From contig OZ246001.1 of assembly GCA_965230295.1 (NCBI GenBank), positions 1,120,001 to 1,184,000 on the forward strand: a stretch of 64,000 nucleotides of DNA. Direction: 5' to 3'. The DNA is from Marinicella sp. (lineage in GTDB: Bacteria; Pseudomonadota; Gammaproteobacteria; Xanthomonadales; Marinicellaceae). The notes under the pieces were generated by a model. It ran no database searches. It was not told where the DNA came from and saw nothing but the letters and a program-made list of their open reading frames with translations. The position numbers and the translations under genes were made by a program. Positions 15,005 to 44,028 of the stretch are shown here, piece after piece. How positions within the stretch are numbered: position 1 is the first letter of the stretch; every line of letters starts with the position of its first letter.

Positions 15005-16096
15005 ATGAAAAATGACTACTTACTAACGATTTTATTATTATTGATTTCGCTACCGATTTTCGCGGCAGAATTTTGTGTCACAAGCAGTGCTGGATTACAA
15101 GCGGCCTTGAATTCGGCTGCAAACAACAACCAACACGATTTGATTAAAATTGCAGAAGGCTCTTACACCACCCCAGGTAGTGAGTTCAGCTACACTGAAA
15201 GTGTCGGCTGGGATCTAGAAATTTCAGGTGGCTGGACTGAGTTTTTTGGCAATCCATGTGGTCAACAACTTTCTGGCAACCCATTCAATACAGTTTTGGA
15301 CGGTGACAGCAGCAACCGGATCATGAACATCCGTTCAGGCGGCTCTTCAGACATCACCATCAGCAGTTTGGCCTTCATTAACGGTGGGACTTCAAACCTA
15401 TCAAATGGCGGAGGTTTGCGATTCTGGCCAACCAACACGAACAATCACACCGGGAAAGTGGTTATTGAAAGATCTGCATTCATCAACAATACGGCTGAAG
15501 AAGCCAGTGCAATTTCCTTTCTCAGTGCAGGGTTACGGAATCACATACGCAACAATATATTCGTTGTAAACAGCACAACCAACGGTTCAAATACTGTCGT
15601 CATCAACCAGGACTTGTCAGCAGGCATTTACTTCACCAACAACACCATGGTTACCAATTCCGGAGATGCGGCCAACAACCGCGGTGGTTTAAGAATTTTC
15701 ACCACCTCGACATCAAATGCTTACGTGGGAAATAACGTGCTGTATGACAACGGCAGTGAGGATTTTAGAGTCACCGGCTCAGGACAGGTATACTTGCATT
15801 ATAACAATGTTGACCTGGTTTTCGGCGCAAGCTCAAGCAGCCTCATAGGTAATTTTTCTGCAGATCCCGAGTTCAATCCAGGCATATTAAACTACACACC
15901 TTCATATGGATCACCCTTGGTTAACCAAGGGTATGACCCTCCCAATATTGTTCCATTTCCAACACCTTTTAATCTGGCATGGTTTGAAGGCACAGTAGAT
16001 ATCTTTGGCAACCCCAGAAAACAAGATGGGAAAGTCGACATTGGAGCGGTTGAGACTGAGCCAGAACCGCCTATATTCGCAAATGGGTTTGAATAA
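15005..16096 (+). CDS. Secreted right-handed beta-helix-like protein with choice-of-anchor Q-like region and terminal IFANGFE tag
   Basis: RBS GAGG; signal peptide; Asn/Gly-rich repeats (GGGL, FINN, FTNNT..N); SPLVNQG..DIFGNPR..VDIGAVE; ends PPIFANGFE. Confidence 0.8.
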   Translation: MKNDYLLTILLLLISLPIFAAEFCVTSSAGLQAALNSAANNNQHDLIKIAEGSYTTPGSEFSYTESVGWDLEISGGWTEFFGNPCGQQLSGNPFNTVLDGDSSNRIMNIRSGGSSDITISSLAFINGGTSNLSNGGGLRFWPTNTNNHTGKVVIERSAFINNTAEEASAISFLSAGLRNHIRNNIFVVNSTTNGSNTVVINQDLSAGIYFTNNTMVTNSGDAANNRGGLRIFTTSTSNAYVGNNVLYDNGSEDFRVTGSGQVYLHYNNVDLVFGASSSSLIGNFSADPEFNPGILNYTPSYGSPLVNQGYDPPNIVPFPTPFNLAWFEGTVDIFGNPRKQDGKVDIGAVETEPEPPIFANGFE

Positions 16097-16102
16097 GTTC
16101 CC

Positions 16103-18685
16103 TTAATCTAGCAGGTGCTCTTGGCCATCAATGGCTTCGAGCATCTGTTGCAGCTTGGTTTCAGCTCTTGCGACTTCTGCATGATCCTGGCCCAAAAAAT
16201 CAATTTGCGCTTGAATCAATGCTTTTTGCGCCAAAACCGCAGATTGATCTTGACCAGCCTGAATCAGGCCATCAACCTGATGACCTTTAACCAAAATGAA
16301 ATACGGGTTGTTGCGTCCAAATTGGGCGACCAACCCAGCCAATGCGTTTTCCCAGACTGGCAACCCCAATGTCACTTGATTCAAACCCATGTGGCTGACT
16401 GCAATGTTGTCTTGCAACAACAAGGTGATTAAATGCCGCTCACCCAAACCCTCCAGTGCAACGGGAAGGCTTTCATCGCTGATTAAAAGGGATTCTTCGT
16501 ATCGACTGGTGTTGTTCAACAATTCACCCAGGTTATAGGCCAGTTTCAAGGTTTCAATGTGGTCATTGCCCATCTTTTCGTTTGCATTCTGGTAAGCTGT
16601 TCTCATCAGATCCTCACCTTCAATCATTCGCCCCAATGAAACGTAAGTATTGGCTAAATTGATATGGGTTTTTATCGCATCTTCACTTTCAGCACCCTCT
16701 AACTGAGTAACCAATTCAGCAGCACGCTCTTGATAAACCAAAGCCTCATCAAGCTTTCCTTGACGTTGTAAGTTCCCGCCTAAGTTAATCAACATAATCA
16801 AATAACCATGATTATCCTTGCCAAAATATTGCTCTGCCAGCTGCATAGACTGTACCAGGATTTCCTCAGCATCTGACCACCGTCCCAAGTGATTCAGCAC
16901 CAATGCCAAATTGTTATTCGCAGCCAGAACATTGGTGGGTTTGGGACTGTCTGTAGAACCCAGTGTGGCCAGAGCTGCACGCGCAACTTGTTCGGCTTCA
17001 TGAAACTTGGTTTGTTCGATATGGGTAACTGTCAATGCCATCAAGGCCAAGAATTTTGTGTTTTGATATTTCGTCTGCCGGGGTATTTGATCCAATAATT
17101 GATTCAACATCACTTCTGCTTTGTTGTATGCCCCTGATCGCCTTTCAGCATCAGCTGCATCCACTTTCGCATGCAAATTCAAATCCATGAATTGTGGCTC
17201 GGGGTCTGTGACATCAATGATTTGTTGTAATAATTTTTGACCGGCTTCATTGCGGCCTAATATCTTTTCGGTCCTTGCCACTTGTAATTTCATTCGCAAC
17301 ACATCTCTTAAATTGGCATCAGGATCATTTTCAAGAAGTGACAATCCTTTTTTGAATTGTTGGTTACTTTGGACCATTAATTTCAGGTTTTGGTATGACT
17401 TGCCGATGGCCTCACTGATGGCTGCCAGCGCCAGAGGCTGAGCAGCAAAACGGTCTGTAGAATTCTTGGCTGCCAAATCCAGCATATCAGCAACCCTGAC
17501 CTCTCGACCTTTGCCAACATCAAAGGTTGAACCCAAAATCTCTTGCAAGAATTCATTGACTGCTTCTGCTTTTTGCTGTTCCTGAACAGCTTTCTGCCGT
17601 TCAACATTGGCAAAATACAAACCCGAACTGGCCAACACCAGGCCGAACAACAATGAGCCTATGATGCCCATCACCATGCGCCGTTTTTTTCGCTGCACCG
17701 GCTCTTCCCTAACCAACTCAAGCGCCTTAATGATCACACTGGCTGTTGGCCTGGATTGTGGATGCGGGTTGATCATGGCCTGAATCAACCTCAGCATTGA
17801 TGTTGGCATATCTGGCCTGAAGCTTCGCAGTGATAAATAAGCTGAATTCTGGTGTGCCTGGGCAATGTCGAGTATATTTTCACCTTTGACCGGATATTGA
17901 CCACTGGCCATTTTAAACAGCAAACAACCCATGGCATAAATGTCACTGGCTGGACTTTTGGGCGAATCAGCAAACAATTCTGGTGCCATCAGCATGGGGG
18001 AACCTACTGAGTGATTACTGGGGTGATTGGAACCACTTTCCAAACCTGCACCAAAATCCATCAACACATATTGATCATTCTGATCCAACATCACATTGGC
18101 TGCTTTGACATCACCATGAACCAAACCTGCCTCGTGAACAGCCTTTAAAGCTTGGCTCAATGCGACACCTGCACTCAATAATTCTTCTAATTCGACACGG
18201 GTGTGACCCTCTAAAGTTTTTCCTAAAATCAAATCAGACCAGAAACCCACCTGCCCATCATGTACGCCAGCACCATGAATCGCCAGCACATGCCGGTTTC
18301 GAACTTGGGCGATGCGTTGGGCTTCTTCAATAAACAGTTTACTGTGAAAGCCAGCCAGTTGATCAGGTTTTAACAGTTTCAGTGCCACATCCCTGTTTAA
18401 CACCGGATCAAATGCCCGGTAGACATCTCCATACCCACCTTCGCCCAATTGTTCAATGACCTGGAGGTGACCCCATTCAAACAGGGCCACCACAGCATTT
18501 TGTGATGGCTGCTGATAAACCTGATGATGAGACGCAAACACTTGCTGGATGTCATGGATGCGCTTCAGCTGCTGCAAGATTTCATTTTCAGACTCGTTAT
18601 GAATGTCTTGTGTGTCCCAATCGACCGGCTCATCTGAAGCCATTTGATTCAGCAATGCCTGCCATTTGTCACCGGGGTCATTCAC
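16103..18685 (-). CDS. Membrane Ser/Thr (Hanks) kinase with C-terminal TPR array
   Basis: LGEGGYGDV, VALKLL, HGDVKAANV, DFG, MAPE, DIYAMG; one TM; TPR repeats such as NNLALVLNHLGRWSDAE. Confidence 0.92.
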   Translation of the reverse strand: MNDPGDKWQALLNQMASDEPVDWDTQDIHNESENEILQQLKRIHDIQQVFASHHQVYQQPSQNAVVALFEWGHLQVIEQLGEGGYGDVYRAFDPVLNRDVALKLLKPDQLAGFHSKLFIEEAQRIAQVRNRHVLAIHGAGVHDGQVGFWSDLILGKTLEGHTRVELEELLSAGVALSQALKAVHEAGLVHGDVKAANVMLDQNDQYVLMDFGAGLESGSNHPSNHSVGSPMLMAPELFADSPKSPASDIYAMGCLLFKMASGQYPVKGENILDIAQAHQNSAYLSLRSFRPDMPTSMLRLIQAMINPHPQSRPTASVIIKALELVREEPVQRKKRRMVMGIIGSLLFGLVLASSGLYFANVERQKAVQEQQKAEAVNEFLQEILGSTFDVGKGREVRVADMLDLAAKNSTDRFAAQPLALAAISEAIGKSYQNLKLMVQSNQQFKKGLSLLENDPDANLRDVLRMKLQVARTEKILGRNEAGQKLLQQIIDVTDPEPQFMDLNLHAKVDAADAERRSGAYNKAEVMLNQLLDQIPRQTKYQNTKFLALMALTVTHIEQTKFHEAEQVARAALATLGSTDSPKPTNVLAANNNLALVLNHLGRWSDAEEILVQSMQLAEQYFGKDNHGYLIMLINLGGNLQRQGKLDEALVYQERAAELVTQLEGAESEDAIKTHINLANTYVSLGRMIEGEDLMRTAYQNANEKMGNDHIETLKLAYNLGELLNNTSRYEESLLISDESLPVALEGLGERHLITLLLQDNIAVSHMGLNQVTLGLPVWENALAGLVAQFGRNNPYFILVKGHQVDGLIQAGQDQSAVLAQKALIQAQIDFLGQDHAEVARAETKLQQMLEAIDGQEHLLD

Positions 18686-19248
18686 TTCATGTTCTCTGCA
18701 AGTTTATACAAGGATCGTGCCACAATCATTCTGGCTGCATTGGCTGAAGAACATTCAATAGCAGCAGCAATTTCAGGGTATGAATAGCCCAATTCAACAC
18801 GCAATATCACCGCTTCCCTTGCTTGCTCGGAAATCTTCATCAACGCATTCTCATATTTTTCAATCACTTCAGACCCGATCGCTTTTTCTAAAGCAGAAGT
18901 GGCTGTGAGGTCATCACTTTCTTGATGTTGTTGTTTGAGCAAGTCCCTTTGGTTGCTGAATCGACGGATTTCCATGCGGATGTTATTCAGCAGAATTTTT
19001 CTTAAATAGGCCAGGAAAGCCCCTTCTCTGATCGAACTGAATGAGTCCAATTTGTTCATTGCTTTGATCAATGTATTTTGTACCATGTCATCGGTCTCAG
19101 CCAAATCACGGGCATAAGCCGGTAGTCGACCATGCGCCCAACGCCTCAGCATGGGCAAATAAGTGTTGCACAATTGTTCACGGGCCAAATCATCGCCTTT
19201 TTTAACTCTGGCCAACAAGGTAGCCGTTGATTCAAGTTTTGCCCGCAT
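18682..19248 (-). CDS. ECF sigma-70 factor, kinase-associated type
   Basis: STATLLARVKKGD..A; ETDDMVQ in region 2.2; region 4 ILRVELGYSYPEIA; 4-bp overlap with the kinase gene. Confidence 0.9.
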   Translation of the reverse strand: MRAKLESTATLLARVKKGDDLAREQLCNTYLPMLRRWAHGRLPAYARDLAETDDMVQNTLIKAMNKLDSFSSIREGAFLAYLRKILLNNIRMEIRRFSNQRDLLKQQHQESDDLTATSALEKAIGSEVIEKYENALMKISEQAREAVILRVELGYSYPEIAAAIECSSANAARMIVARSLYKLAENMK

Positions 19249-19338: not shown

Positions 19339-19470
19339 CTAAGCTCGCCAAGCCGGTTGGTGAGCTTAGCGAATCAGAGGCGAAGTGTGCGAAATAATAA
19401 GCCATGTTCGCAGCGGCCGCTTTCACTTTTTTCGGAGATAAAAGTGAATGAAGTCCCAAGAACATTCCTT
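19339..19470 (+). repeat. Structured dispersed intergenic element, copy A
   Basis: Several hairpins; its 3' 29 nt match the reverse complement of 51983-52011 at 28/29; its 5' block matches 52102-52123 at 16/22. Confidence 0.7.
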
Positions 19471-19512
19471 TATAATCCACGCAGCCTTAATAATTTTGTT
19501 GGAACCTCGATC

Positions 19513-22500
19513 ATGACACATCAAGCCTTACCATTCTCAGCGCACTACTTAATGGACGAAGAAGCATGGGTGAATCAACTGCTGGATTTTGCTAATCCAG
19601 GTGCCGGGAAACGACAAGAAATAAAACAATTGGCCACACAATTGGTGAAAAATGTTCGGGCACAAATTGATGACATGGATGGTGTCGATGCCTTCATGAA
19701 AGAATATGACTTGTCTTCTAAAGAAGGCATCCTGTTGATGTGCCTGGCAGAGGCCCTGTTACGCATTCCAGACAAATCCACAGCCGATAAATTAATCAAG
19801 GACAAAATCCTCGAAGCTGACTGGAAATCTCATCTAGGTAACAGTGAATCTCTGTTCGTCAATGCCTCCACTTGGGGCCTGATGCTAACCGGTAAGATCA
19901 TCGACATCGATGAAAGCAAAGGTGGCATGGCTCGAGCGCTTGACAAGTTCATCAATAAAACGGGGGAACCGGTGATCAGAAAAGGCATCCACCGTGCCAT
20001 GCAGGTGATGGGCAAACAATTCGTGATGGGCCGCAACATCAAAGAAGCCATCAAGCGTTCTGGCAAAAAAGGTTTCAGAGATTACCGTTATTCCTATGAC
20101 ATGTTGGGTGAAGCTGCGTTGACTCAAGACGATGCCGAACGTTATTTCATGGCATACATGAATTCGATTGCCAGTATTGCCGATGCCAATAAAAAACGCC
20201 ACATCAATGATGCTTCAAGTATCTCGATCAAACTATCTGCCTTACACCCAAGATACGAAGTGGGCAATGTCAACCGAGTGATCAAAGAATTGGCGCCTAA
20301 AGTATTGGAAATTGCCAACCATGCCAAACAACTCAATGTGGCTGTCACCATCGATGCTGAAGAAGCCGACCGCCTGGAAATATCACTGAAAATTTTCGAG
20401 GCAGTTTATCAGCACTTAGAGGACTACCAAGGATTTGGGTTGGTGGTTCAGGCCTATCAAAAAAGGGCTTTGAAGGTGTTGGAGTGGCTGGCTGATCAAT
20501 ATGACCAACACAAACGCCTGATCCCCATTCGCTTGGTAAAAGGCGCTTACTGGGACACCGAAATCAAGCGTGCACAAGAACAAGGGCTAGACAATTACCC
20601 TGTGTTTACCCGTAAAGTCAACACCGATGTGTCATACCTGGCTTGTGCCAGATTTCTGCTGAACAACCGTTCCAGGTTTTATCCGCAGTTTGCCACCCAC
20701 AATGCCAACACGGTAGCGGCCATTAAAGTATTGGCCGGTGAAACAGGTGGGTATGAATTTCAAAGGTTGCATGGCATGGGCCAGGCCTTACACGCCCAAA
20801 CCATCAGCCCAGAAGGATTGAACCGCCCATGTAGAATTTATGCACCAGTGGGTTCACACGAAGACCTGCTTCCTTACTTGGTCAGGCGCTTGCTGGAAAA
20901 TGGTGCCAACACCTCTTTTGTTAACCGCTTGACTGACCTGACCCTGGACATTGATGCCATCACCCAAGATCCCATTGAAAAGGTACGTAAACACACTGTA
21001 CACAAGCACCCCATGTTGCCTTTACCCAGAGACATTTATGGCACCAGTCGCATCAATTCGGCTGGTTTCAATTTAGGCGATTTAAAATGTATCGAAGATT
21101 TACAAAAACATGTCAAAGCAGAATCCGCTTTAAAACATCACGCAACCAGTCTGGTACCTGGTACCGAAGCCATTGGTGAGTTGGTTGAGGTACATTCACC
21201 GGCCAATCTGGATGTGATGATCGGTAGTTACAACCGAGCACAACCCGATGACATCGATTCGGCTGTGAAGAACGCCAGTGCTGCTTTCCCGCAATGGCGT
21301 GACACCGCTGTTGCAACCAAAGCTGAATGTCTATTGAAATTGGCTGATTTAATGGAAAGGAACAGCCATGCCTTGATTAACTTGTTACAAAATGAGGCCG
21401 GAAAAACCATGGGTGATTGTATCGCGGAATTGCGCGAAGCCGTGGATTTTTGCCGTTATTACGCAGACCAAGCCATCCAGTTGTGTGGACAAGGTGAAAA
21501 AATGCCTGGGCCCACCGGTGAAAGCAACTACTTGTATCACCAAGGCAAAGGCGTGTTTGTTTGTATCAGCCCATGGAACTTTCCGTTAGCCATCTATACC
21601 GGGCAGATTGTTGCCGCATTGGTGACAGGTAACTGTGTGATTGCGAAACCGGCTGAACAAACCAGTTTGATTGGCCATTTCACAGCCCAATTGATGCACC
21701 AGGCAGGCATTCCAGAACAAGTGTTCCAGCTGGTTTTGGGTTCAGGCAGTCAAATAGGCAACCAACTGTGCCAATACAATGAAATTGCTGGCGTGGTGTT
21801 CACAGGCTCAACCCAAACTGCTCAAATCATCAACCTCAATTTAGCCAACCGCAAAAACGCTTCCATTGCCACTTTGATTGCGGAAACCGGTGGGCAAAAT
21901 TGTATGATTGCCGACTCTTCATGCTTACCAGAGCAACTGGTTAAGGATGTGATCAATTCAGCCTTTCTCAGCGCCGGACAACGTTGTTCTGCATTACGTG
22001 TGTTGTACATACAAGCTGATGTGGCTGATAAAGTCATCCATATGTTGAAAGGGGCCATGGATGAATTGTCCATTGGCAATCCACAGCTGTTCTCCACCGA
22101 TTTGGGACCGGTGATTGATCAAAAAGCATTGAGCCTATTACAAAATCACAGAACCCGCATGCAACAAGAAGGCACGCCCCTCAAAACACTCGGTGTTCCT
22201 GAAATCAATGGGCATTATTTTGCACCTCAGGCCGTCGAAATCAGCGACATAGGTGTACTGGAGCAAGAAATCTTCGGTCCATTCTTGCATGTCATCAGAT
22301 ACCAAGCCAATGAACTGGACCAGGTCATTGACGCCATCAATGGTACCGGTTATGGACTGACCACAGGCATCCATTCACGCATCGATGACACCATTGAATA
22401 TGTGGTTTCAAGAATTCAGGCAGGTAACTGTTATATCAACCGCAACATGATTGGCGCCGTGGTAGGGGTTCAACCTTTCGGAGGCATGGGCTTATCTGGC

Positions 22501-22623
22501 ACCGGACCAAAAGCAGGCGGACCCGGTTACCTCCGGCAGTTCCTCACTGAAAAAACCATCACCAACAACATTTCAGCTGTCGGAGGCAATGCCGACTTGT
22601 TGGAGTTGTCTGATGACGAATAG
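19513..22623 (+). CDS. putA: Bifunctional proline dehydrogenase / P5C dehydrogenase (no N-terminal RHH domain)
   Basis: LMCLAEALLRIPD, SYDMLGEAA, RLVKGAYWDTEIK, FQRLHGMG, VRRLLENGAN, AETGGQN, GQRCSALR; start placed at ATG 19513. Confidence 0.96.
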   Translation: MTHQALPFSAHYLMDEEAWVNQLLDFANPGAGKRQEIKQLATQLVKNVRAQIDDMDGVDAFMKEYDLSSKEGILLMCLAEALLRIPDKSTADKLIKDKILEADWKSHLGNSESLFVNASTWGLMLTGKIIDIDESKGGMARALDKFINKTGEPVIRKGIHRAMQVMGKQFVMGRNIKEAIKRSGKKGFRDYRYSYDMLGEAALTQDDAERYFMAYMNSIASIADANKKRHINDASSISIKLSALHPRYEVGNVNRVIKELAPKVLEIANHAKQLNVAVTIDAEEADRLEISLKIFEAVYQHLEDYQGFGLVVQAYQKRALKVLEWLADQYDQHKRLIPIRLVKGAYWDTEIKRAQEQGLDNYPVFTRKVNTDVSYLACARFLLNNRSRFYPQFATHNANTVAAIKVLAGETGGYEFQRLHGMGQALHAQTISPEGLNRPCRIYAPVGSHEDLLPYLVRRLLENGANTSFVNRLTDLTLDIDAITQDPIEKVRKHTVHKHPMLPLPRDIYGTSRINSAGFNLGDLKCIEDLQKHVKAESALKHHATSLVPGTEAIGELVEVHSPANLDVMIGSYNRAQPDDIDSAVKNASAAFPQWRDTAVATKAECLLKLADLMERNSHALINLLQNEAGKTMGDCIAELREAVDFCRYYADQAIQLCGQGEKMPGPTGESNYLYHQGKGVFVCISPWNFPLAIYTGQIVAALVTGNCVIAKPAEQTSLIGHFTAQLMHQAGIPEQVFQLVLGSGSQIGNQLCQYNEIAGVVFTGSTQTAQIINLNLANRKNASIATLIAETGGQNCMIADSSCLPEQLVKDVINSAFLSAGQRCSALRVLYIQADVADKVIHMLKGAMDELSIGNPQLFSTDLGPVIDQKALSLLQNHRTRMQQEGTPLKTLGVPEINGHYFAPQAVEISDIGVLEQEIFGPFLHVIRYQANELDQVIDAINGTGYGLTTGIHSRIDDTIEYVVSRIQAGNCYINRNMIGAVVGVQPFGGMGLSGTGPKAGGPGYLRQFLTEKTITNNISAVGGNADLLELSDDE

Positions 22624-36806: not shown

Positions 36807-36837
36807 AAAAAAAAGGCTCCTGATGGAGCCTTTTTTT
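36807..36837. terminator. Bidirectional intrinsic terminator between queF and bfd
   Basis: A8-GGCTCC-TGAT-GGAGCC-T7. Confidence 0.9.
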
Positions 36838-36858
36838 GAGCAATTCAAAATTCAATTC

Positions 36859-37083
36859 TTATGCTGGAACTTGACAATCAACCGATGGTTGTAAAATTTT
36901 CAAAAAATCAGGGGTTACTTTTTGATTTTGGGCTTGTAACACCTCTAATGCTGAATCAGCACAGGTACCACAACCCGTGGCACAACCCGTCATTTGCTTG
37001 ATGTCTTGCATACTACTGGCGCCTGCTTTGGCGGCTTTTTGAATGTCTTTTTCAGTCACACCGTGACAAATACAAACGTACAT
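36859..37083 (-). CDS. bfd: Bacterioferritin-associated [2Fe-2S] ferredoxin
   Basis: MYVCICHGVTE..CATGCGTC. Confidence 0.9.
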   Translation of the reverse strand: MYVCICHGVTEKDIQKAAKAGASSMQDIKQMTGCATGCGTCADSALEVLQAQNQKVTPDFLKILQPSVDCQVPA

Positions 37084-37110
37084 AATAGATTTTTCTCATT
37101 GCTTGGCTCA

Positions 37111-37140
37111 ATTATAATTGCTAATGAGAATGATTGTCAA
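37111..37140 (-). promoter_or_regulatory. Sigma70 promoter with overlapping Fur box upstream of bfd
   Basis: Minus strand TTGACA-18bp-TATAAT; GCTAATGAGAATGATTGTC (37120-37138) matches the Fur consensus at 15/19. Confidence 0.8.
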
Positions 37141-37201: not shown

Positions 37202-39949
37202 CTACTGTGTTTTCAACTGTGAAATTTCCTCGGCCAAGGCAATCTCTGACTGGTATCGGTTTTTCAATTCCGGTACATCCAAAATGTCCAACACATCAGC
37301 AGCTTGTTGAGTAGCCACCAATGAATTTCCTGTTGCGGCATTCAACTGTGCCCAGCGCAGTTTAGCCACTGCAGTACGCTTTGAGCCCAGCCCATAGGTA
37401 TCAACCATCAACTGATGTGCTTTTGCAATGATTGACTCAGCTTCATCATATTCACCCACTTCGATCAACAAAGGTACATACATGATTTGGAATCGAGCAA
37501 ACATAGGATGGTTTACACCCATTTCATGCTTTATACCATCCAGGGCCATTTCAAAGAACCTTTTGGATGCTTCATATTTTTTCAATGCCAACAATGATCG
37601 GGCCATTCCCACATCTGTAGATGCTTCATAAAACGGAATTCTTGGCTCCAAAGCAGGCCATAAACTTTGCGCCTTTTTAAAGTTCTCGATGGCTTTTTCA
37701 TGTTCGTTCAAAGCACGGTAAGACATGCCCATGTTCAAATAAGCTGCTGGCATTTGATGCCCTTTGATTTCTGTACCATATAGGTTGTCAATGATTTGTT
37801 GGTTGATCCTGATCCCTTCTCTCATGTCTCCCAATGAAGCCACTGATACAGCCAAACGACCTAAGTTGTCGATAGTCTCAGGATGGTTCTTACCAAATTT
37901 TTCACTGAAATAAGCAACCAACTCCCGATCAATTTCAATCGCTTTCAGTGCTTCCCCACTGTTGAAGAATGCATCGGATTCTATCCCTAAAATTTGAGGG
38001 TATAACAGGGGTTCATCAGTCACTTGTAGGGCATGTGATTTCGCCACAGCTATGTCATCCAATGCTTGCTTGAAATCAGGTTCAACCAAGGCCAGTTTGC
38101 CTTTCAAAGCATAGAGTGACGCCAGCAACGAATGGGCAGAAAACAACTTGGCTATGTCAGGTTCATATGAGCTTAAAGTGAGCATGATTTGTGCAGCCTC
38201 TGCTGTTTGATTCAAACGAATTAAGCTGTTCATAAGAGACATGGCTGCCCTCGCTGATTGTTCGTTAACATCATCTGTCAATGGTGCCAATTCCATCGCC
38301 TGCCTGAAATGATGAACAGCCCCTTCCAAATTATCCTGTGCTTCCATGTTATTACCCGCATGGATGTGAGCAGCTGCTAATCTATGTGTCTCTTTGGGTT
38401 GTTGATTCAATAATTTTATTTGTTCATTGGTGAGTTGTTCGGCAGACTTCACTTGACCTAAACGATACTGGATTTGGCTTAACAGCCCCAATGTTTCGGT
38501 TTTTAATAACACATCACCCTTTTCTGCCAAAATCTTCTCAGCTGCCAACCCAGTTAATTCATTGACACTGATGGGTTGTTGCTGATTCTTAACCGGATCT
38601 GCCGCTGTGAAAATACTGAGTAAAAATTGATTCGACCAATTGGCTTTTTCGGCCTCTTGCTCAGCAATGGCCGCTTGGTTAAAAGCAAACACCGCAGAGG
38701 CAACTATGCCAAACACAGCTGCAGATGAAATGGTGATTGGTATTTTATTTTTTTGCCATGTTTTACTGAATCTGTACCAAAAATGATTGGCGTGATTGGG
38801 AACCGCCGAACCTGCTAAGAACAGCTGTAAATCATTATTCAATTCAGTGGTATTTTTATACCGGGCACTGACATCCACTTGTAAACCTTTATCGATGATG
38901 GTGCCCAACTCTTTTGACAAAGCCCTGTCTATAACTTTCGGATCCAGGCCATTCATCAGAGCTATGCCATGACCACTTTTGCATTGTGCTTTGAAACGCT
39001 GATAGACTTTTTCAATTGGATTGTTCAGTTGTTGGTGATAATCAACCAAAGTGGTTATTGATTCACTTTTCCTGGGCACAGATCCTGTACACAGCTCATA
39101 CAAAACAGCACACAATCCAAATACATCACTGGCTGTGCTGAGCAAATCACCTTTGGTTTGCTCCGGAGATGAATAGCCAGGAGTGAACTGCGGTAAATAA
39201 ATGTCAGCAGAACTGACATGTAAGGGGCGGGCTACACCAAAATCCACCAATTTAATCTGTCCCGCTTCATTGACCAAGATATTGGCAGGTTTGATGTCTC
39301 CATGAATAACCAAATTCTGGTGGGCATACCCAACTGCATTGATGGTTTGTTGCACAAGTTTGATGCGTTCATGCAATGACAATTTATGTTTTTCAGCATA
39401 GGTACAAATTGGGCTTCCAGCCACCAACTCCATAACAAAGTATGAAATGTCATCATCATTGGTTCCACCATCAATCAAACGAGCAATGTTGGGGTGCTCG
39501 AATTGAGCCAAAGTTCGCATTTCTTCTGTGAACTTTTGTTTGCTGAGTTCTGAAAACTGGCCAGACTTGATGATCTTTAACGCCACTTCCTTTTCATATT
39601 CACCATCAGCCCTGCGCGCGATAAACACTTGCCCCATGCCGCCACTTGCCAAGGGTTTGGTCACTTTCCATGCCCCGAATTTTCGACCAACTATGTCACT
39701 CGGATTGCTGTGATTCAGCACCTGTTCTCCCAACAGTGACTCCACCAATGGATCGATCGAAGTATTCAAAATGTTGGTGCCAGATTCGTTTGCCAACATT
39801 TTTTGTAAGACCAACCGAGCTTCATCTGACAAATCTGCCTCTGCCATCTGCGTTTCTTGTGCCTCCTGCGGTAAATCACACAAAACATCAAATAGATTCA
39901 GAACCTGGGTCCACACCACTGGAGATAATTTTTTTAACAACTCATTCAT
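37202..39949 (-). CDS. Membrane Ser/Thr kinase with C-terminal TPR array
   Basis: W..V..LFD N-terminal helix; LASGGMGQV, VALKII, HPNIARLIDGG, HGDIKPANI, DFG, FTPGYSSPEQ; TM; TPRs. Confidence 0.92.
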   Translation of the reverse strand: MNELLKKLSPVVWTQVLNLFDVLCDLPQEAQETQMAEADLSDEARLVLQKMLANESGTNILNTSIDPLVESLLGEQVLNHSNPSDIVGRKFGAWKVTKPLASGGMGQVFIARRADGEYEKEVALKIIKSGQFSELSKQKFTEEMRTLAQFEHPNIARLIDGGTNDDDISYFVMELVAGSPICTYAEKHKLSLHERIKLVQQTINAVGYAHQNLVIHGDIKPANILVNEAGQIKLVDFGVARPLHVSSADIYLPQFTPGYSSPEQTKGDLLSTASDVFGLCAVLYELCTGSVPRKSESITTLVDYHQQLNNPIEKVYQRFKAQCKSGHGIALMNGLDPKVIDRALSKELGTIIDKGLQVDVSARYKNTTELNNDLQLFLAGSAVPNHANHFWYRFSKTWQKNKIPITISSAAVFGIVASAVFAFNQAAIAEQEAEKANWSNQFLLSIFTAADPVKNQQQPISVNELTGLAAEKILAEKGDVLLKTETLGLLSQIQYRLGQVKSAEQLTNEQIKLLNQQPKETHRLAAAHIHAGNNMEAQDNLEGAVHHFRQAMELAPLTDDVNEQSARAAMSLMNSLIRLNQTAEAAQIMLTLSSYEPDIAKLFSAHSLLASLYALKGKLALVEPDFKQALDDIAVAKSHALQVTDEPLLYPQILGIESDAFFNSGEALKAIEIDRELVAYFSEKFGKNHPETIDNLGRLAVSVASLGDMREGIRINQQIIDNLYGTEIKGHQMPAAYLNMGMSYRALNEHEKAIENFKKAQSLWPALEPRIPFYEASTDVGMARSLLALKKYEASKRFFEMALDGIKHEMGVNHPMFARFQIMYVPLLIEVGEYDEAESIIAKAHQLMVDTYGLGSKRTAVAKLRWAQLNAATGNSLVATQQAADVLDILDVPELKNRYQSEIALAEEISQLKTQ

Positions 39950-40526
39950 CGATCAACGCCGCCAATATGGCTTTGGCTTTTTGCCATGTTCGATCAAGTG
40001 TCCTTTTTGAGACCCCCAAAATTTCTGCGGTCTCACTGACTGTCATCCCCACAAAATACCGCAAATGCACCACTTCGACCAAATTAGGATCCACATCTTT
40101 CAGTTGTTCCAAAGCTTCGTTCAAGGCCACCACTTGAAAACAATCCTGGGCTGTTTTTGTGGATTGTTCCTCATAAGTTACCTGTTGGTTTGCTGCCCCC
40201 CTCTTGTCAGACATTTGGCGCCTGGCCATATCAACCAATATGTGCCGCATTGACAAAGCTGCCGTTGAATAAAAGTGCCTGCGGTTACTCCATTTTTTTT
40301 CGTCCGAATTGACACTGAGTTTAAGGTAAGCTTCGTGCACCAAAGATGTGGTATCCAGGTCTTTGTTATTGACATGCTTTCTGAGTTTGGCATGGGCAAT
40401 GATTTTGAGTTCCTGATACAACAAGGCCTGCAACTTTTTATCTTGTAATGCGGCTTGTAAAGATTCATTGTTCAATACATTGGTGACAGAACCCATCATC
40501 AATCTCAGGGGTTGGTGTTCAATCAT
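39942..40526 (-). CDS. ECF sigma factor, TIGR02999/ECF43-like (EcfK/EcfP type)
   Basis: YQELKIIAH, LDTTSLVHEAYLKL, W.NRRHFY..AA.SMRHILVD.AR..KRG, LRYFVG..E.AE.LGVS.RT..R.W; start uncertain (40526 or 40499). Confidence 0.9.
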   Translation of the reverse strand: MIEHQPLRLMMGSVTNVLNNESLQAALQDKKLQALLYQELKIIAHAKLRKHVNNKDLDTTSLVHEAYLKLSVNSDEKKWSNRRHFYSTAALSMRHILVDMARRQMSDKRGAANQQVTYEEQSTKTAQDCFQVVALNEALEQLKDVDPNLVEVVHLRYFVGMTVSETAEILGVSKRTLDRTWQKAKAILAALIDE

Positions 40527-40598
40527 ATTACCACAGCCCTTGAGTTGCTCACAATGCCGATTAATTTTTAATCCAACCATCATTCTGAGATCTGTTGA

Positions 40599-42554
40599 TT
40601 ACTCAAAATCATCACTAAAAATGAGGTCATCTGACTCGAAAACCGCTCTTATCGTGTGGCTTGATTGCACATTGGTTAAACATTCATCGTCCTGGTTCAC
40701 CAAGGGACAGTTCAACCAACCGATGAAATCACTGCCTGACAATGGCGTGGCAATTAAGGTCACGATGGTGCCATTGAAATACACTTCTGAGCAGTCAACT
40801 CCACATGAGATACCACCCGGAATACTGACCACTGCCCCTTCACCAGAGCCTTCTTTTTGTATGGTCAATAAAAACTCATCTTCACCAATGCTGTCATACA
40901 CTTCGTCAAAACCAGCATCATACAAACCACCAGGATCACCAGGTAAGCCTTGTGGATTGGTGTTCTCATTGACCGGTGCATCTTGATTTTCAATATCGAC
41001 TTCAGTTGTCCAACTGAATGAATCTTGCAAACACATATCCACGCCAGGAGAACTGGCCAGTTGTCTGGCATCTCCAGCAGCTGGGTTGATCAGTTGAGGC
41101 GTGCCCATGTCGTAAATCCCGGTAGGCCAAGCATGGCTGTTGTCAATCAGGTTACATTGGCCGGTGATGATGGCCGAACCGCCAGATCGGTCATCAAAAC
41201 CCGATGAATCAGTGAGCACTGAGTTTTGAATGTCTATGAACCCCGTCAGCAAGACCGATACGTAAGAACCGGTATTTGAATCTGGTATGTGGTTATCAGC
41301 CATGGTCATGTGACTGACTTCAAATTCATCGTTGTTGTTATCAGAGCGCAACATCGCATTGGCGCTGTTTCTGATCATTCCAACCCGATTCATTCTGACC
41401 CTGGATCCACCGTTACTGGTGATCATGCCAACAGCCACTGGGGTGGGAGCGATGTATTCGCTTTGTTCAATGACAGTTCTGTTTAATTGAACCATCGAAT
41501 CATTCACATTAACCACGGAACGTTCATAACGCGCACCCTGAACCTCTGAACAACGGAACAGCAAATTGCAATCGTTGGTTTGGTCCATGATTAATTGGGG
41601 CGTTGCCGTGCCGCCTCCATTGGCGTAAATGGCTGCACCCTGATCGGCTTGTGGCGCATTGATGTGGGTGTTTTGTAACAGTACAAAACCGCTACCATTG
41701 ATGTAAATGGCGCCACCATTTTCTGCCACGTTGCCATCAAAAATGACCCGGTTGGCTCGGCCATCTGCGAACACTTCGCCGCCATTATCAACATATAAAC
41801 CGGCGCCTTCTTCTGCATCCATACCTGACAAGGTGCCCCGGCCTTCTATCCTGACTCCATCTTTAATTTCTAAGTAACAACCACTTCTGATGTGCAAATT
41901 ACCTCCCTTTAATCCCTGATTGCGATGTAATCTTCCACGTAAAATCACGGTCGAATTATTCCCGGTGCAATAAATGCCTCCACCCAGGATATTGTTGGTG
42001 TTGCCATTGAACTGAATCAATGAATTGGATAAGACATCCAAGTAGCTGCCACCTGAAACCACTATGCCTGATTGGTTGCTGCTCACTAAAACATTGTCCA
42101 AGGTGACCACAGCACCACCATTCAATACCAAGGCACGGGTGGCACTGGTCAAGGACATTTGAATGTTCCTGAAAGTCACCACAGAACTGCTTTCGTTCAA
42201 AGTATTGACCTCAAAAATTTCATTGTTGGTGTCACCGATGGTTGTTCTGCCGCTGACCGCTCCAAAACAATCCGGATAACCACCGACCAAGGTCAATTCA
42301 CCAGCACCTGATGAAGACCAGTCCTGCAGCACGTAACTGCCATTGCTGTTGCCTGTATAATTGACGGTGTTGGTCAATCGAATCTCATCTTGCGAATCAC
42401 CGTTCAAGGCCGCCACAAGCAGTGCTTGGTCTAATGTGCCAAAGACATTGCCCCCGTTGCAGTTGACTGAATTGCCAACCCAATAAAGACCTGACCAAGC
42501 TGAAGTGCTGAAAATAACCGTCAATGATAAAATAAATATTTTAGTTGTTTTCAT
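40599..42554 (-). CDS. Secreted beta-helix/Pmp-like protein with choice-of-anchor Q-like region, InlB-B-like domain and terminal IFSDDFE tag
   Basis: RBS GAGGG; signal peptide; GGGI/GGAI repeats; SPGVD..DAGFDE; GSGEGAV.S.PGGI.CG.DC..VTL.A.P..GS.F.GW; ends DDLIFSDDFE. Confidence 0.8.
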   Translation of the reverse strand: MKTTKIFILSLTVIFSTSAWSGLYWVGNSVNCNGGNVFGTLDQALLVAALNGDSQDEIRLTNTVNYTGNSNGSYVLQDWSSSGAGELTLVGGYPDCFGAVSGRTTIGDTNNEIFEVNTLNESSSVVTFRNIQMSLTSATRALVLNGGAVVTLDNVLVSSNQSGIVVSGGSYLDVLSNSLIQFNGNTNNILGGGIYCTGNNSTVILRGRLHRNQGLKGGNLHIRSGCYLEIKDGVRIEGRGTLSGMDAEEGAGLYVDNGGEVFADGRANRVIFDGNVAENGGAIYINGSGFVLLQNTHINAPQADQGAAIYANGGGTATPQLIMDQTNDCNLLFRCSEVQGARYERSVVNVNDSMVQLNRTVIEQSEYIAPTPVAVGMITSNGGSRVRMNRVGMIRNSANAMLRSDNNNDEFEVSHMTMADNHIPDSNTGSYVSVLLTGFIDIQNSVLTDSSGFDDRSGGSAIITGQCNLIDNSHAWPTGIYDMGTPQLINPAAGDARQLASSPGVDMCLQDSFSWTTEVDIENQDAPVNENTNPQGLPGDPGGLYDAGFDEVYDSIGEDEFLLTIQKEGSGEGAVVSIPGGISCGVDCSEVYFNGTIVTLIATPLSGSDFIGWLNCPLVNQDDECLTNVQSSHTIRAVFESDDLIFSDDFE

Positions 42555-42640
42555 GGGTATACCCTCAATATTAATTACTGGGGCATACGCAGAAACAATG
42601 GACATTGCGCCAAATGAATTTGATTTTTTATTTTGGACAT

Positions 42641-42666
42641 AAAAAAAGGCTCCTTGGGAGCCTTTC
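42641..42666 (-). terminator. Intrinsic terminator after the DAACS transporter gene
   Basis: AAAGGCTCC-N3-GGAGCC followed by T7 on the minus strand. Confidence 0.85.
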
Positions 42667-42688: not shown

Positions 42689-43948
42689 CTATTCCTTGAT
42701 CACCCCTGCTTTAGGATCATCAAAAACGGTTTGGTCTAGTTGGCCCTGGGATTTGGCCACAATACAAGTCACTGCAGAATCGCCTGTGATATTCACTGCA
42801 GTGCGGGTCATGTCTAATAAGCGATCGATACCTAATATGATGCCGATACCCTCAATGGGTAAGCCCACCTGTAACAACACGCCTTGTAACATCACCAAGC
42901 CAGCAGAAGGTACGCCTGCAGAACCAATTGAAGCCATGGTGGCCATCAACACCACCATCATGATTTGCGTGGTGGTGAGGTCTACACCATAAGCATTGGC
43001 AATGAATACGGTGGCCACACCTTGCATGATGGCGGTGCCATCCATGTTGATGGTGGCACCAAATGGGATGGTGAATGACGCCACTGATTTATCAACACCC
43101 AACCGTTCCGTGTTGGTTCTGAGTGTGACTGGAATGGTGGCATTGGAACTGGAAGTACCAAAGGCAAATGACACAGCCCCTTCCATTTTTTTCAAGAACG
43201 TCAGTGGATTCAAGCCAGACAACAGTTTTAGCAAGACTGGATAAATCACCAAGGCATGGAAGATCAATAAACCCAGTACGGTAAAGAAATAACCAGACAA
43301 GGTTTTGATCGCATCCAATCCAAGTTCGGCGAAGACTTTGGCCAAAATGGCAAACACGGCATAAGGTGCGAAATGCATGATCAACATCACCAGCTTCATG
43401 ATCACTTCATTGAACGCCTTGAAGAAATCAATCACTTGTTCACCGGCTTTGCCAGCCATAGTCGCGCTTAAGCCAAGTAAGATGGCAAACACAATGACGG
43501 CCAACAGATTACCTTCTGCCATGGCTTTGATGGGGTTATCAATGATGCTTAAGATGACTTGTATGAATGTTTTACTTTCCTTCGGAACATAATTGATGTC
43601 TGTGGGAATCTCTGCCCCACTGCCTACCCCTATCAACAAGGCAAAACCCAAAGCAATGCCCAATGCAATGGCAGTGGTCAATAAATAGAAGGCCAGCGTC
43701 CGACCACCTATTGAACCCAGCATGGCCGGATCGCGTAATGCTGTGGTGCCACAGAACAAGGACACAAACACCAAGGGCACCACCATCATCTTCAAGGACA
43801 AGATGAATAACTGGCCAATGGTATAAAACAATCCATTGATGAGGTATTTATCTATCGCCGCATGGGCACTTAAATCTGAGAGGTTGAGGACCAGGCCCAA
43901 AATGGCACCGGCCACCATAAAGATGATGATTTTTTTGGTTAAAGTCAT
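42689..43948 (-). CDS. Dicarboxylate/amino acid:cation symporter (DAACS, GltP-like)
   Basis: LKMMVVPLVF, AFGTSSSNATIP, GATINMDG, GIDRLLDMTRT..N..GD. Confidence 0.93.
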   Translation of the reverse strand: MTLTKKIIIFMVAGAILGLVLNLSDLSAHAAIDKYLINGLFYTIGQLFILSLKMMVVPLVFVSLFCGTTALRDPAMLGSIGGRTLAFYLLTTAIALGIALGFALLIGVGSGAEIPTDINYVPKESKTFIQVILSIIDNPIKAMAEGNLLAVIVFAILLGLSATMAGKAGEQVIDFFKAFNEVIMKLVMLIMHFAPYAVFAILAKVFAELGLDAIKTLSGYFFTVLGLLIFHALVIYPVLLKLLSGLNPLTFLKKMEGAVSFAFGTSSSNATIPVTLRTNTERLGVDKSVASFTIPFGATINMDGTAIMQGVATVFIANAYGVDLTTTQIMMVVLMATMASIGSAGVPSAGLVMLQGVLLQVGLPIEGIGIILGIDRLLDMTRTAVNITGDSAVTCIVAKSQGQLDQTVFDDPKAGVIKE

Positions 43949-44028
43949 GTTGTTCTGAAATTTTTGATGCCATGAATGATAGCTCATTCATGGCAAGATT
44001 GCACCTGTGGTTATTCAGCGGCTCTCAG

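Follow-up and report, generated by a model that had tools for sequence, protein, structure and literature searches.

A conserved three-gene unit in Marinicella places a tagged, secreted beta-helix protein beside an ECF43-like sigma factor and a receptor kinase

The window analyzed here, a 64,000-nucleotide stretch from the marine gammaproteobacterium Marinicella sp. (assembly GCA_965230295.1, contig OZ246001.1, positions 1,120,001 to 1,184,000), contains a three-gene run on the minus strand that we call module 2. It is made up of a gene for a tagged secreted protein (TAG2), followed by a gene for an extracytoplasmic function (ECF) sigma factor (ECF2) and then by a gene for a membrane-bound receptor kinase (STK2). 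Module 2 is a real, well-delimited, and conserved unit. Judged from sequence, the ECF2/STK2 pair fits the published ECF43 type, and the regulatory core is of a known kind. We consider it reasonably likely that module 2 as a whole is a phosphorylation-controlled ECF circuit of the ECF43, or PknS-EcfK, type with the adjacent tagged gene as its direct target. The predicted roles are that STK2 probably switches on ECF2 and that TAG2 is most likely the gene directly controlled by ECF2.

The 5' boundary of module 2 is an intrinsic terminator at 42644..42666 on the minus strand (10-bp stem with 5 GC pairs, then a T-run), which ends the upstream gene for a sodium:dicarboxylate symporter (42689..43987, minus; PF00375). 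TAG2 extends from its ATG at 42554 to its stop codon at 40599 (40599..42554, minus) and encodes a secreted protein of 651 aa with the terminus ...DDLIFSDDFE. ECF2 (39942..40499, minus) encodes 185 aa from an MMGS start within a longer open reading frame (ORF) at 39942..40583, and STK2 (37202..39949, minus) encodes a kinase of 915 aa. The ORFs of ECF2 and STK2 overlap by 8 nt (39942-39949). A scan of the three-gene run found no terminator-like site between TAG2, ECF2, and STK2, and there is no anti-sigma gene, nor any further ORF between or beside ECF2 and STK2. The original prediction had described a terminator, a tagged gene ending in IFSDDFE, a TIGR02999-like ECF gene, and a kinase gene overlapping it by 8 bp, and all four are present as described.

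ECF2 scores 176.4 bits against TIGR02999 (cutoff 126.15) and 138.1 bits against PF07638, and its architecture comprises only two regions, sigma-2 and sigma-4. Orthologues begin MGS(V/L)T, and their alignment places the start of the sigma gene most likely at 40499 or 40496 (MMGS/MGS) and not at 40583, which leaves a spacer of about 100 nt behind TAG2. The TIGR02999 family would appear to correspond to group ECF43. According to PMC13147305, sigma factors of this group have uncharged residues in place of DxxD in region sigma-2.2, with a QTTA consensus in which a threonine is phosphorylated. EcfP reads STTA and also does without DAED, and it is the second threonine of STTA/QTTA that is phosphorylated (PMC8999054 and PMC13147305). 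In ECF2 the residues D49-T50-T51-S52 precede LVHEAY and stand in place of the canonical DAED, giving a threonine at the phospho-position and uncharged residues around it, though D49 is acidic. The same stretch reads NTTA or NTTS in orthologues of ECF2 and SATV in a second group of sigma factors from the related loci described below, clade B, which scores 116-123 bits against TIGR02999, just below the cutoff.

STK2 (Pkinase 143.5 bits) consists of an N-terminal extension (residues 1-90), a Hanks kinase domain (96-367), one transmembrane (TM) helix (403-425), and a periplasmic tetratricopeptide repeat (TPR) domain of ~490 residues (~426-915), in which TPR family matches extend across ~530-890. 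Its catalytic motifs, VALK at 122, HGDIKPAN at 216, DFG at 236, and SPE at 261, are invariant in all 15 aligned orthologues, and the layout of extension, kinase, one TM helix, and periplasmic TPRs is found in 17 of the 17 kinases compared. Relatives of the periplasmic domain at >=30% identity are limited to 15 Marinicella-like proteins. Over the 17 periplasmic domains, the conserved residues are small or structural, with the addition of one motif, E..KA.....F.L..F...DP, in the juxtamembrane stretch directly outside the TM helix (STK2 ~431-451; window ~38597-38659, minus). This motif is kept in 15-17 of the 17 kinases, across clades A and B and the second module of the window (module 1), while the rest of the periplasmic domains diverge. 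Assignment to the FxSxx-COOH system was considered and rejected, as the TPR regions hit NF040586 at 59 and 123 bits against a cutoff of 300 and the last five residues of the tagged proteins do not fit F-x-S-x-x.

TAG2 begins with a Sec-type signal peptide, recognized by eye, at residues 1-21 (MKTTKIFILSLTVIFSTSAWS). This is followed by a right-handed beta-helix (~23-500), a linker, an InlB-B-repeat-like domain (560-641; PF18998, 25 bits), and a disordered tail that carries the C-terminal tag LIFSDDFE (residues 644-651; 40602..40625, minus), whose strict motif recurs in relatives. The AlphaFold2 (AF2) model is an all-beta coil with a mean predicted local distance difference test (pLDDT) score of 87.2, falling to 43-59 in the tail. 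Both TAG2 and TAG1, the tagged protein of module 1, belong to the parallel beta-helix proteins by their AF2 folds, by the presence of PF13229 on TAG2 relatives, and by Foldseek. Rhombotarget A is a weak structural match of TAG2 (E 8e-3), and a search of the ESM Atlas returned generic beta-helix clusters only. A hypothetical protein of M. litoralis has 76% sequence identity to TAG2. From the usual role of the fold, TAG2 is probably a carbohydrate-acting or carbohydrate-binding protein. The label of "effector" that had been given to the tagged protein is unproven, its fold being a generic right-handed beta-helix.

The conservation of module 2 was followed in one genome per species, in loci chosen for encoding TAG2 relatives. 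There are 29 such loci (numbered with the prefix L) with 31 gene copies, of which 23 are assessable in that several kb of flank are available; the eight dropped are those of L004 (two), L011, L021, L023, L026, L028, and L029. An ECF-kinase pair adjoins 16 of these 23 copies, with the genes arranged in one of two orders, in agreement with the expectation that the three-part architecture would recur and that synteny would be kept in relatives. Five copies (L001, L002 with two tandem units, L003, and L016) have the tagged gene, the ECF gene, and the kinase gene in one direction, as in the window, and the M. litoralis locus, L003, matches the window throughout its order of GltS-SDF-TAG-ECF-STK-QueF-SMC. 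The tagged gene of eleven other copies (L005, L007-L010, L014, L015, and L017-L020) is convergent with the kinase and ECF genes. On a tree of 26 TAG2-family proteins, the type of neighbor requires 5 label changes, compared with 11.7 in shuffles (0 of 200 as low), a result that speaks for clustering and not for independent events because related rows share labels. The ECF tree has the same clades as the TAG tree, including a pair formed by L002b and L016, and the idea of a paralogous family is strengthened by the mutual agreement of the TAG tree, the ECF tree, and the promoter variant described below. One Marinicella metagenome-assembled genome (MAG) contains two complete co-directional TAG-ECF-STK units in tandem with one 498-aa ORF between them (L002 10001-21932), and these differ in the -35 element, TGGCGCA in one and TGGCGGG in the other, which makes them a natural test case for cross-talk. 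Some genes at these loci are split into two ORFs, namely the kinase gene of L016 (5105-7894) and the tagged genes of L007 (10001-11927) and L011 (9941-11905), reflecting frameshifts or errors of assembly in MAGs.

New evidence on ECF2 and its neighbor comes mainly from the predicted promoters. ECF promoters usually take the form of a two-block motif with a CGT-containing -10. Upstream of TAG2 there is a predicted promoter of this type at 42585..42612 (minus), with a -35 of TGGCGC (42612..42607), a 16-nt spacer, and a -10 of GCGTAT (42590..42585), the -35 beginning 58 nt before the ATG. It is the single clade-A-type match in the 64-kb window. Regular expressions for such promoters were searched on both strands of 507,742 nt. 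For clade A, the clade of the window, TGGCG[CG]-N-GCGTAT (also written TGGCG-N-[GA]CGT[AT]T) lies directly upstream of TAG genes beside clade-A sigma factors in 6 of its 9 matches: the window, L002 twice, L003, L016, and the second copy of L004. For clade B, TGTC[AG]T-N-CGTA has 11 matches, and 10 of them have a TAG2-family gene directly downstream; seven of the 10 are next to clade-B sigma factors, and three, two in L006 and one in L013, are at loci where no pair is adjacent. Spacing is fixed, at 28 nt in clade A and 27 nt in clade B, and most copies have the start of the -35 at 55-61 nt from the ATG. The -35 changes with the clade of the neighboring sigma factor, being TGGCGC here and TGTCAT elsewhere, and the sub-variant TGGCGGG is limited to L002b and L016, which form one subclade in both the TAG and the ECF trees. 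For TAG2 relatives that lack an adjacent pair, all 8 loci inspected have TGTC[AG]C-N16-[CG]CGA[AC]T equally far upstream. No clade of the tagged gene is thus without an ECF-type promoter, which lies ~60 nt ahead of the start codon. These promoters are consistent with the earlier suggestion that the tagged gene belongs to the sigma regulon. Just upstream of the ECF-type promoter in Wenzhouxiangella loci there is also a tandem heptamer in three to four copies (CCTGAAA; GAAACCG in L022), ~70-110 nt upstream of the TAG gene in L022, L024, L026, L027, and L028, with copies of CCTGACC at the same place in L025.

Several points weigh against the reading that ECF2, once phosphorylated, directly drives TAG2. 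Its support comes from sequence. One acidic residue, D49, is kept in the DTTS stretch of ECF2, and the T51A variant of EcfK is reported to be still functional, further sites being of importance (PMC13147305). No specific function follows from the fold of TAG2, as its Foldseek structure search gave 0 matches at E <= 0.001. There is no pair in the flanks of seven of the 23 assessable copies (L006, L012, L013, L022, L024, L025, and L027), four of which are from Wenzhouxiangella or other Lysobacterales, so that adjacency is not a requirement. Each of the 18 Hanks kinase genes in the 507,742 nt is paired with one of 18 ECF genes, and each pair lies by a tagged gene, a count that is biased because the loci were selected for TAG2 relatives. 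The clade-B unit often lies behind the same upstream gene, and vertical inheritance within a single family could account for much of the synteny. Lastly, the promoter expressions are loose, with 11 matches for clade B against 6.0 in shuffles and 9 for clade A against 4.3, and the motifs were derived from most of the loci in which they were then counted, with L004, L006, L013, and the pairless loci as the only hold-outs. For this reason, what counts is where the matches lie, their fixed spacing, and how they covary with the sigma clade, and not how many of them there are.

It could be argued from some of these points that the adjacency is not regulatory at all, in which case another sigma factor would serve the TAG2 promoter, the ECF2-STK2 pair would act elsewhere, and the linkage would reflect shared ancestry. 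The seven copies without a pair keep an ECF-type promoter, and related species share flanking genes, as the M. litoralis locus does with the window. However, the -35 variant shifts with both the clade and the subclade of the neighboring sigma factor, the association persists across two gene orders and also, in module 1, with a third sigma subfamily, and the only clade-A promoter match in the window fronts TAG2. We regard a purely ancestral linkage as unlikely.

Direct control of TAG2 by ECF2, the reading we prefer, can be laid out as a series of steps. From gene content, domain layout, synteny, promoter-like motifs, and their covariation with the sigma clade, we infer phosphorylation, the assignment of sigma factor to promoter, read-through, and the function of TAG2, along with every biochemical step that follows. 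STK2 would be an inner-membrane protein whose TPR domain faces the periplasm and whose kinase domain faces the cytoplasm, and an envelope or external cue acting on the TPR domain would activate the protein. The active kinase would phosphorylate ECF2 at a threonine of the DTTS stretch (T51 or nearby), and the phosphate would give ECF2 the negative charge that it lacks for binding core RNA polymerase. RNA polymerase carrying ECF2 would then initiate at TGGCGC-N16-GCGTAT upstream of TAG2, and the TAG2 protein would be exported by Sec.

Basal amounts of ECF2 and STK2 would come from a second promoter. The spacer between TAG2 and ECF2 contains a predicted sigma-70-type extended -10 (TGTGGTAATAT; 40525..40535, minus), in which the columns T.TG.TA..AT are invariant in 6 of the 6 co-directional loci, and this element would supply basal transcription of ECF2-STK2. 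As no terminator lies behind TAG2, induced transcription may read on into ECF2-STK2 and provide positive feedback where the genes have this order. The original prediction that co-transcription could give positive feedback accordingly stands as a possibility for co-directional loci, tempered by the conserved sigma-70-like promoter that the sigma-kinase pair has of its own. Read-through feedback does not hold as a general property because the other gene order is convergent, with the tagged gene facing the kinase gene in 11 related loci and in module 1. The same spacer contains an inverted repeat with a CTCAG/CTGAG core that brackets the promoter (window 40500-40598, minus; L003 12003-12043; L002 11950-12001) and ends just before the sigma start codon; its flanking bases vary among the three closely related loci yet stay complementary. 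A spacer hairpin was not accepted as a feature of the module, since the gain in folding over shuffles is weak (z -1.6 to -1.9) and the element is absent in L002b, L001, and L016. In front of the clade-B sigma genes (L005, L007, L008, L014, L015, and others), TCAGTTAAAAT ends 6-9 nt before the ATG, a position that suggests leaderless or near-leaderless mRNAs for these genes.

The C-terminal tail of TAG2 is a portable motif, found by sequence on several secreted protein families and undescribed. Its consensus is [IL]-F-x-[DN]-G-F-E. Within the last 16 residues of the protein, 45 of 53 TAG2 homologues have the strict motif, 31 of them with no residue behind it; among TAG1 homologues the tail is present in 45 of 69. 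Of the best 150 of 1197 TAG1-family representatives (E <= 0.001), 108 have the tail, exactly terminal in 48 and with 1-7 residues after it in 60, while 15 have loose variants and 27 have none. Of the 838 ORFs of at least 100 aa in the loci of relatives, 34 have the tail C-terminally and 0 have it elsewhere. Five of the 34 tailed ORFs are not TAG2 relatives, one being a CBM96 protein, one a DUF285 protein, and three without a Pfam match. The tag is not confined to the modules, since other protein families also have the tail and it is present in genomes where an adjacent ECF-kinase pair is lacking. No NCBIfam model was found for the tail in a search of four 40-residue tails, and literature searches on C-terminal secreted motifs, choice-of-anchor proteins, and Marinicella sigma factors found no description of the tail or the modules among the papers listed.

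Most simply, the tail is a general tail of a class of exported proteins. Another reading takes the tag to be a general signal by which a class of exported proteins of Marinicellaceae and related Lysobacterales is sorted, secreted, anchored, or processed, with the regulation unrelated to it and the modules merely happening to act on members of this class. Its sole occurrence at C-termini would be expected of such a signal, as would its presence on at least four unrelated protein types and on so many of the TAG1-family representatives. In TAG1 the tail directly follows a weak choice-of-anchor-Q match, which is where a sorting signal is usually found in choice-of-anchor proteins. Structurally, TAG1 is matched best by Rhombotarget A, a family named for its C-terminal sorting tag. 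Sortase-type signals such as PEP-CTERM and GlyGly-CTERM, however, consist of a signature motif, a hydrophobic helix, and a basic cluster. The tail, at 7-8 residues, has neither the helix nor the cluster; it lies 0-7 residues from the end of the protein, its last residue is acidic, and there is no hydrophobic stretch. No candidate processing enzyme was seen in the flanks, and the lack of an NCBIfam model also counts against an established signal. A general signal of this kind is possible, if somewhat doubtful.

Alternatively, the tag may be both input and output of the circuit, in that the periplasmic TPR domains would read the [IL]FxDGFE tail of the neighboring protein, or of any protein that has it, and the module would keep watch on how its own product is exported or accumulates. 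In the models of both TAG1 and TAG2 the tail is exposed and disordered, both it and the TPR domain would be periplasmic, and the two tagged ORFs of the window adjoin its two kinases. TPR domains are commonly peptide binders, and those of PknS are called protein-protein interaction modules in PMC13147305. Against recognition of this sort, the tails LIFSDDFE, PIFANGFE, and LIFSDGFE are nearly alike despite very different TPR domains, and for this reason the tail cannot alone give module specificity. It is also present on unrelated families (CBM96 and DUF285) and in genomes without an adjacent kinase, the 1-7 residues that follow it in many relatives leave no fixed free carboxylate, and conservation over the 17 periplasmic domains is confined to small or structural residues and the juxtamembrane motif. 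Co-folding of the STK2 periplasmic domain (431-915) with TAG2 560-651, which includes the tag, scored 0.00 against a mark of 0.32, a result that speaks neither for nor against binding. We consider recognition of the tail by the TPR domains a long shot. If true, the modules would be self-reporting export circuits, in which each kinase/sigma pair drives and monitors a tagged exported protein, and the tail would be the first ligand class for the TPR sensors of ECF43-type kinases.

Module 1 has the same three components in a different gene order and with an ECF of a different subfamily, as had been noted from the sequence. TAG1 (15005..16096, plus) is a 363-aa secreted beta-helix protein with the end PPIFANGFE, and its AF2 model (pLDDT 93.1) is a compact beta-helix with a less confident tail. 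Convergent with it is STK1 (16103..18685, minus), a Hanks kinase with one TM helix (337-357) and periplasmic TPRs, which is overlapped by 4 nt by the sigma factor gene ECF1 (18682..19248, minus). The best match of ECF1 is TIGR02984 at 82 bits, below the cutoff; it keeps an acidic sigma-2.2 stretch, AETDDMVQ, and forms a very long branch in the ECF tree. Casas-Pastor et al. list several kinase-linked groups (ECF43, ECF59-62, ECF217, ECF267, and ECF283), and a kinase-linked sigma factor outside ECF43, such as ECF1, is therefore within known territory. Upstream of ECF1 there is an extended -10-like sequence, TGCTATATAAT. A six-frame scan of ORFs of at least 100 aa found exactly two in the window with the terminal motif, TAG1 and TAG2. 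Two Hanks kinases and two ECF-like ORFs were found in the window in all, and they form the pairs that adjoin these tagged ORFs. PutA was rejected as the tagged gene of module 1, as 19357..22623 encodes PutA (1531.9 bits) and lies outside the module; the tagged gene is that at 15005..16096.

The kinship of the two modules extends to their tagged proteins, which are distant homologues over the N-terminal ~120 residues only (hhalign probability 96.9%, E 1.5e-10), BLASTP of TAG1 against TAG2 giving nothing significant. TAG1 matches Rhombotarget A best (Foldseek E 3.1e-5, probability 1.0, TMq 0.43), with Pel9A and PL6 lyases also among its best matches. Against choice-of-anchor Q (NF041518) TAG1 scores 20.0 and 19.5 bits, below the cutoff of 25 bits, TAG2 has no match, and a relative, P0138, bears a choice-of-anchor Q name from NCBI.

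The stop codons of TAG1 and STK1 are 6 nt apart, and those of convergent units generally 5-58 nt. Where tagged and kinase genes end within 5-7 nt of each other (window 16096-16103, L014 1673-1681, L015 1876-1882), there is no room for separate terminators, and the transcripts should overlap in antisense. As speculation, polymerases transcribing an induced tagged gene in a convergent unit may proceed into the kinase gene in antisense. A stretch of ~60 nt from the region between ECF1 and putA (window 19340-19400, minus) recurs almost unchanged at L016 4236-4300, inside an enlarged TAG-ECF spacer of 304 nt. It is present in one copy in the window, has no Rfam match, and might represent either a conserved RNA or a small mobile repeat; Rfam gave 0 matches at the gathering threshold over the whole window. 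Directly downstream of STK2 there is a gene for a 74-aa BFD-like [2Fe-2S] ferredoxin (36859-37140, minus; PF04324, 52.6 bits) with a perfect TTGACA-18-TATAAT promoter at 37140..37111. The AT-rich sequence overlapping this promoter resembles, by eye, a Fur box. The ferredoxin gene and queF have a bidirectional terminator in common near 36810-36840.

The modules of Marinicella are small, repeated natural units whose likely target gene and promoter can be read from sequence. The change of the -35 with the sigma clade makes cross-talk and specificity directly testable, and the units offer candidate orthogonal sigma/promoter pairs. Among characterized systems, the closest in layout is EcfK-PknS of Xanthomonas citri, compared here by published description. 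PknS is an 833-aa receptor kinase in which an N-terminal extension of 83 residues is followed by a kinase domain, a single TM helix, and TPRs in the periplasm, according to PMC13147305, and it resembles STK2 in this layout and in the length of the extension (83 vs ~90 aa). From the same description, both systems have an adjacent ECF gene, no anti-sigma factor, and a TT motif in sigma-2.2. They differ in output, as the pair of X. citri lies in and controls a type VI secretion cluster (PMC8999054), whereas here a single secreted beta-helix gene is the neighbor and likely target. The role of the periplasmic TPR domain is left open in the PknS paper (PMC13147305). EcfP-PknT of Vibrio parahaemolyticus, the ECF43 prototype, is similar in that its sigma factor lacks DAED, with STTA there and DTTS here, that phosphorylation of a threonine in sigma-2.2 is proposed as the activating event, and that the kinase gene is nearby (PMC8999054); it differs in responding to polymyxin and controlling a resistance regulon.

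The tagged proteins and the proposed periplasmic sensing have parallels in other systems. Rhombotarget A (PDB 9cdv/9cdu) is, like the TAG proteins, an exported beta-helix with a conserved C-terminal tail, at an identity of 13-14%. Its tag is the GlyGly-CTERM transmembrane signal, while the TAG tail is an 8-residue acidic motif without a helix. DegS reads the YxF C-termini of outer membrane proteins, and CpxP feeds back on CpxA. By analogy, sensing in the periplasm through proteins with an exposed conserved tail, with an ECF sigma factor as output, would liken the modules to these systems, although the sensing component there is a PDZ protease or CpxP and here would be a TPR-kinase.

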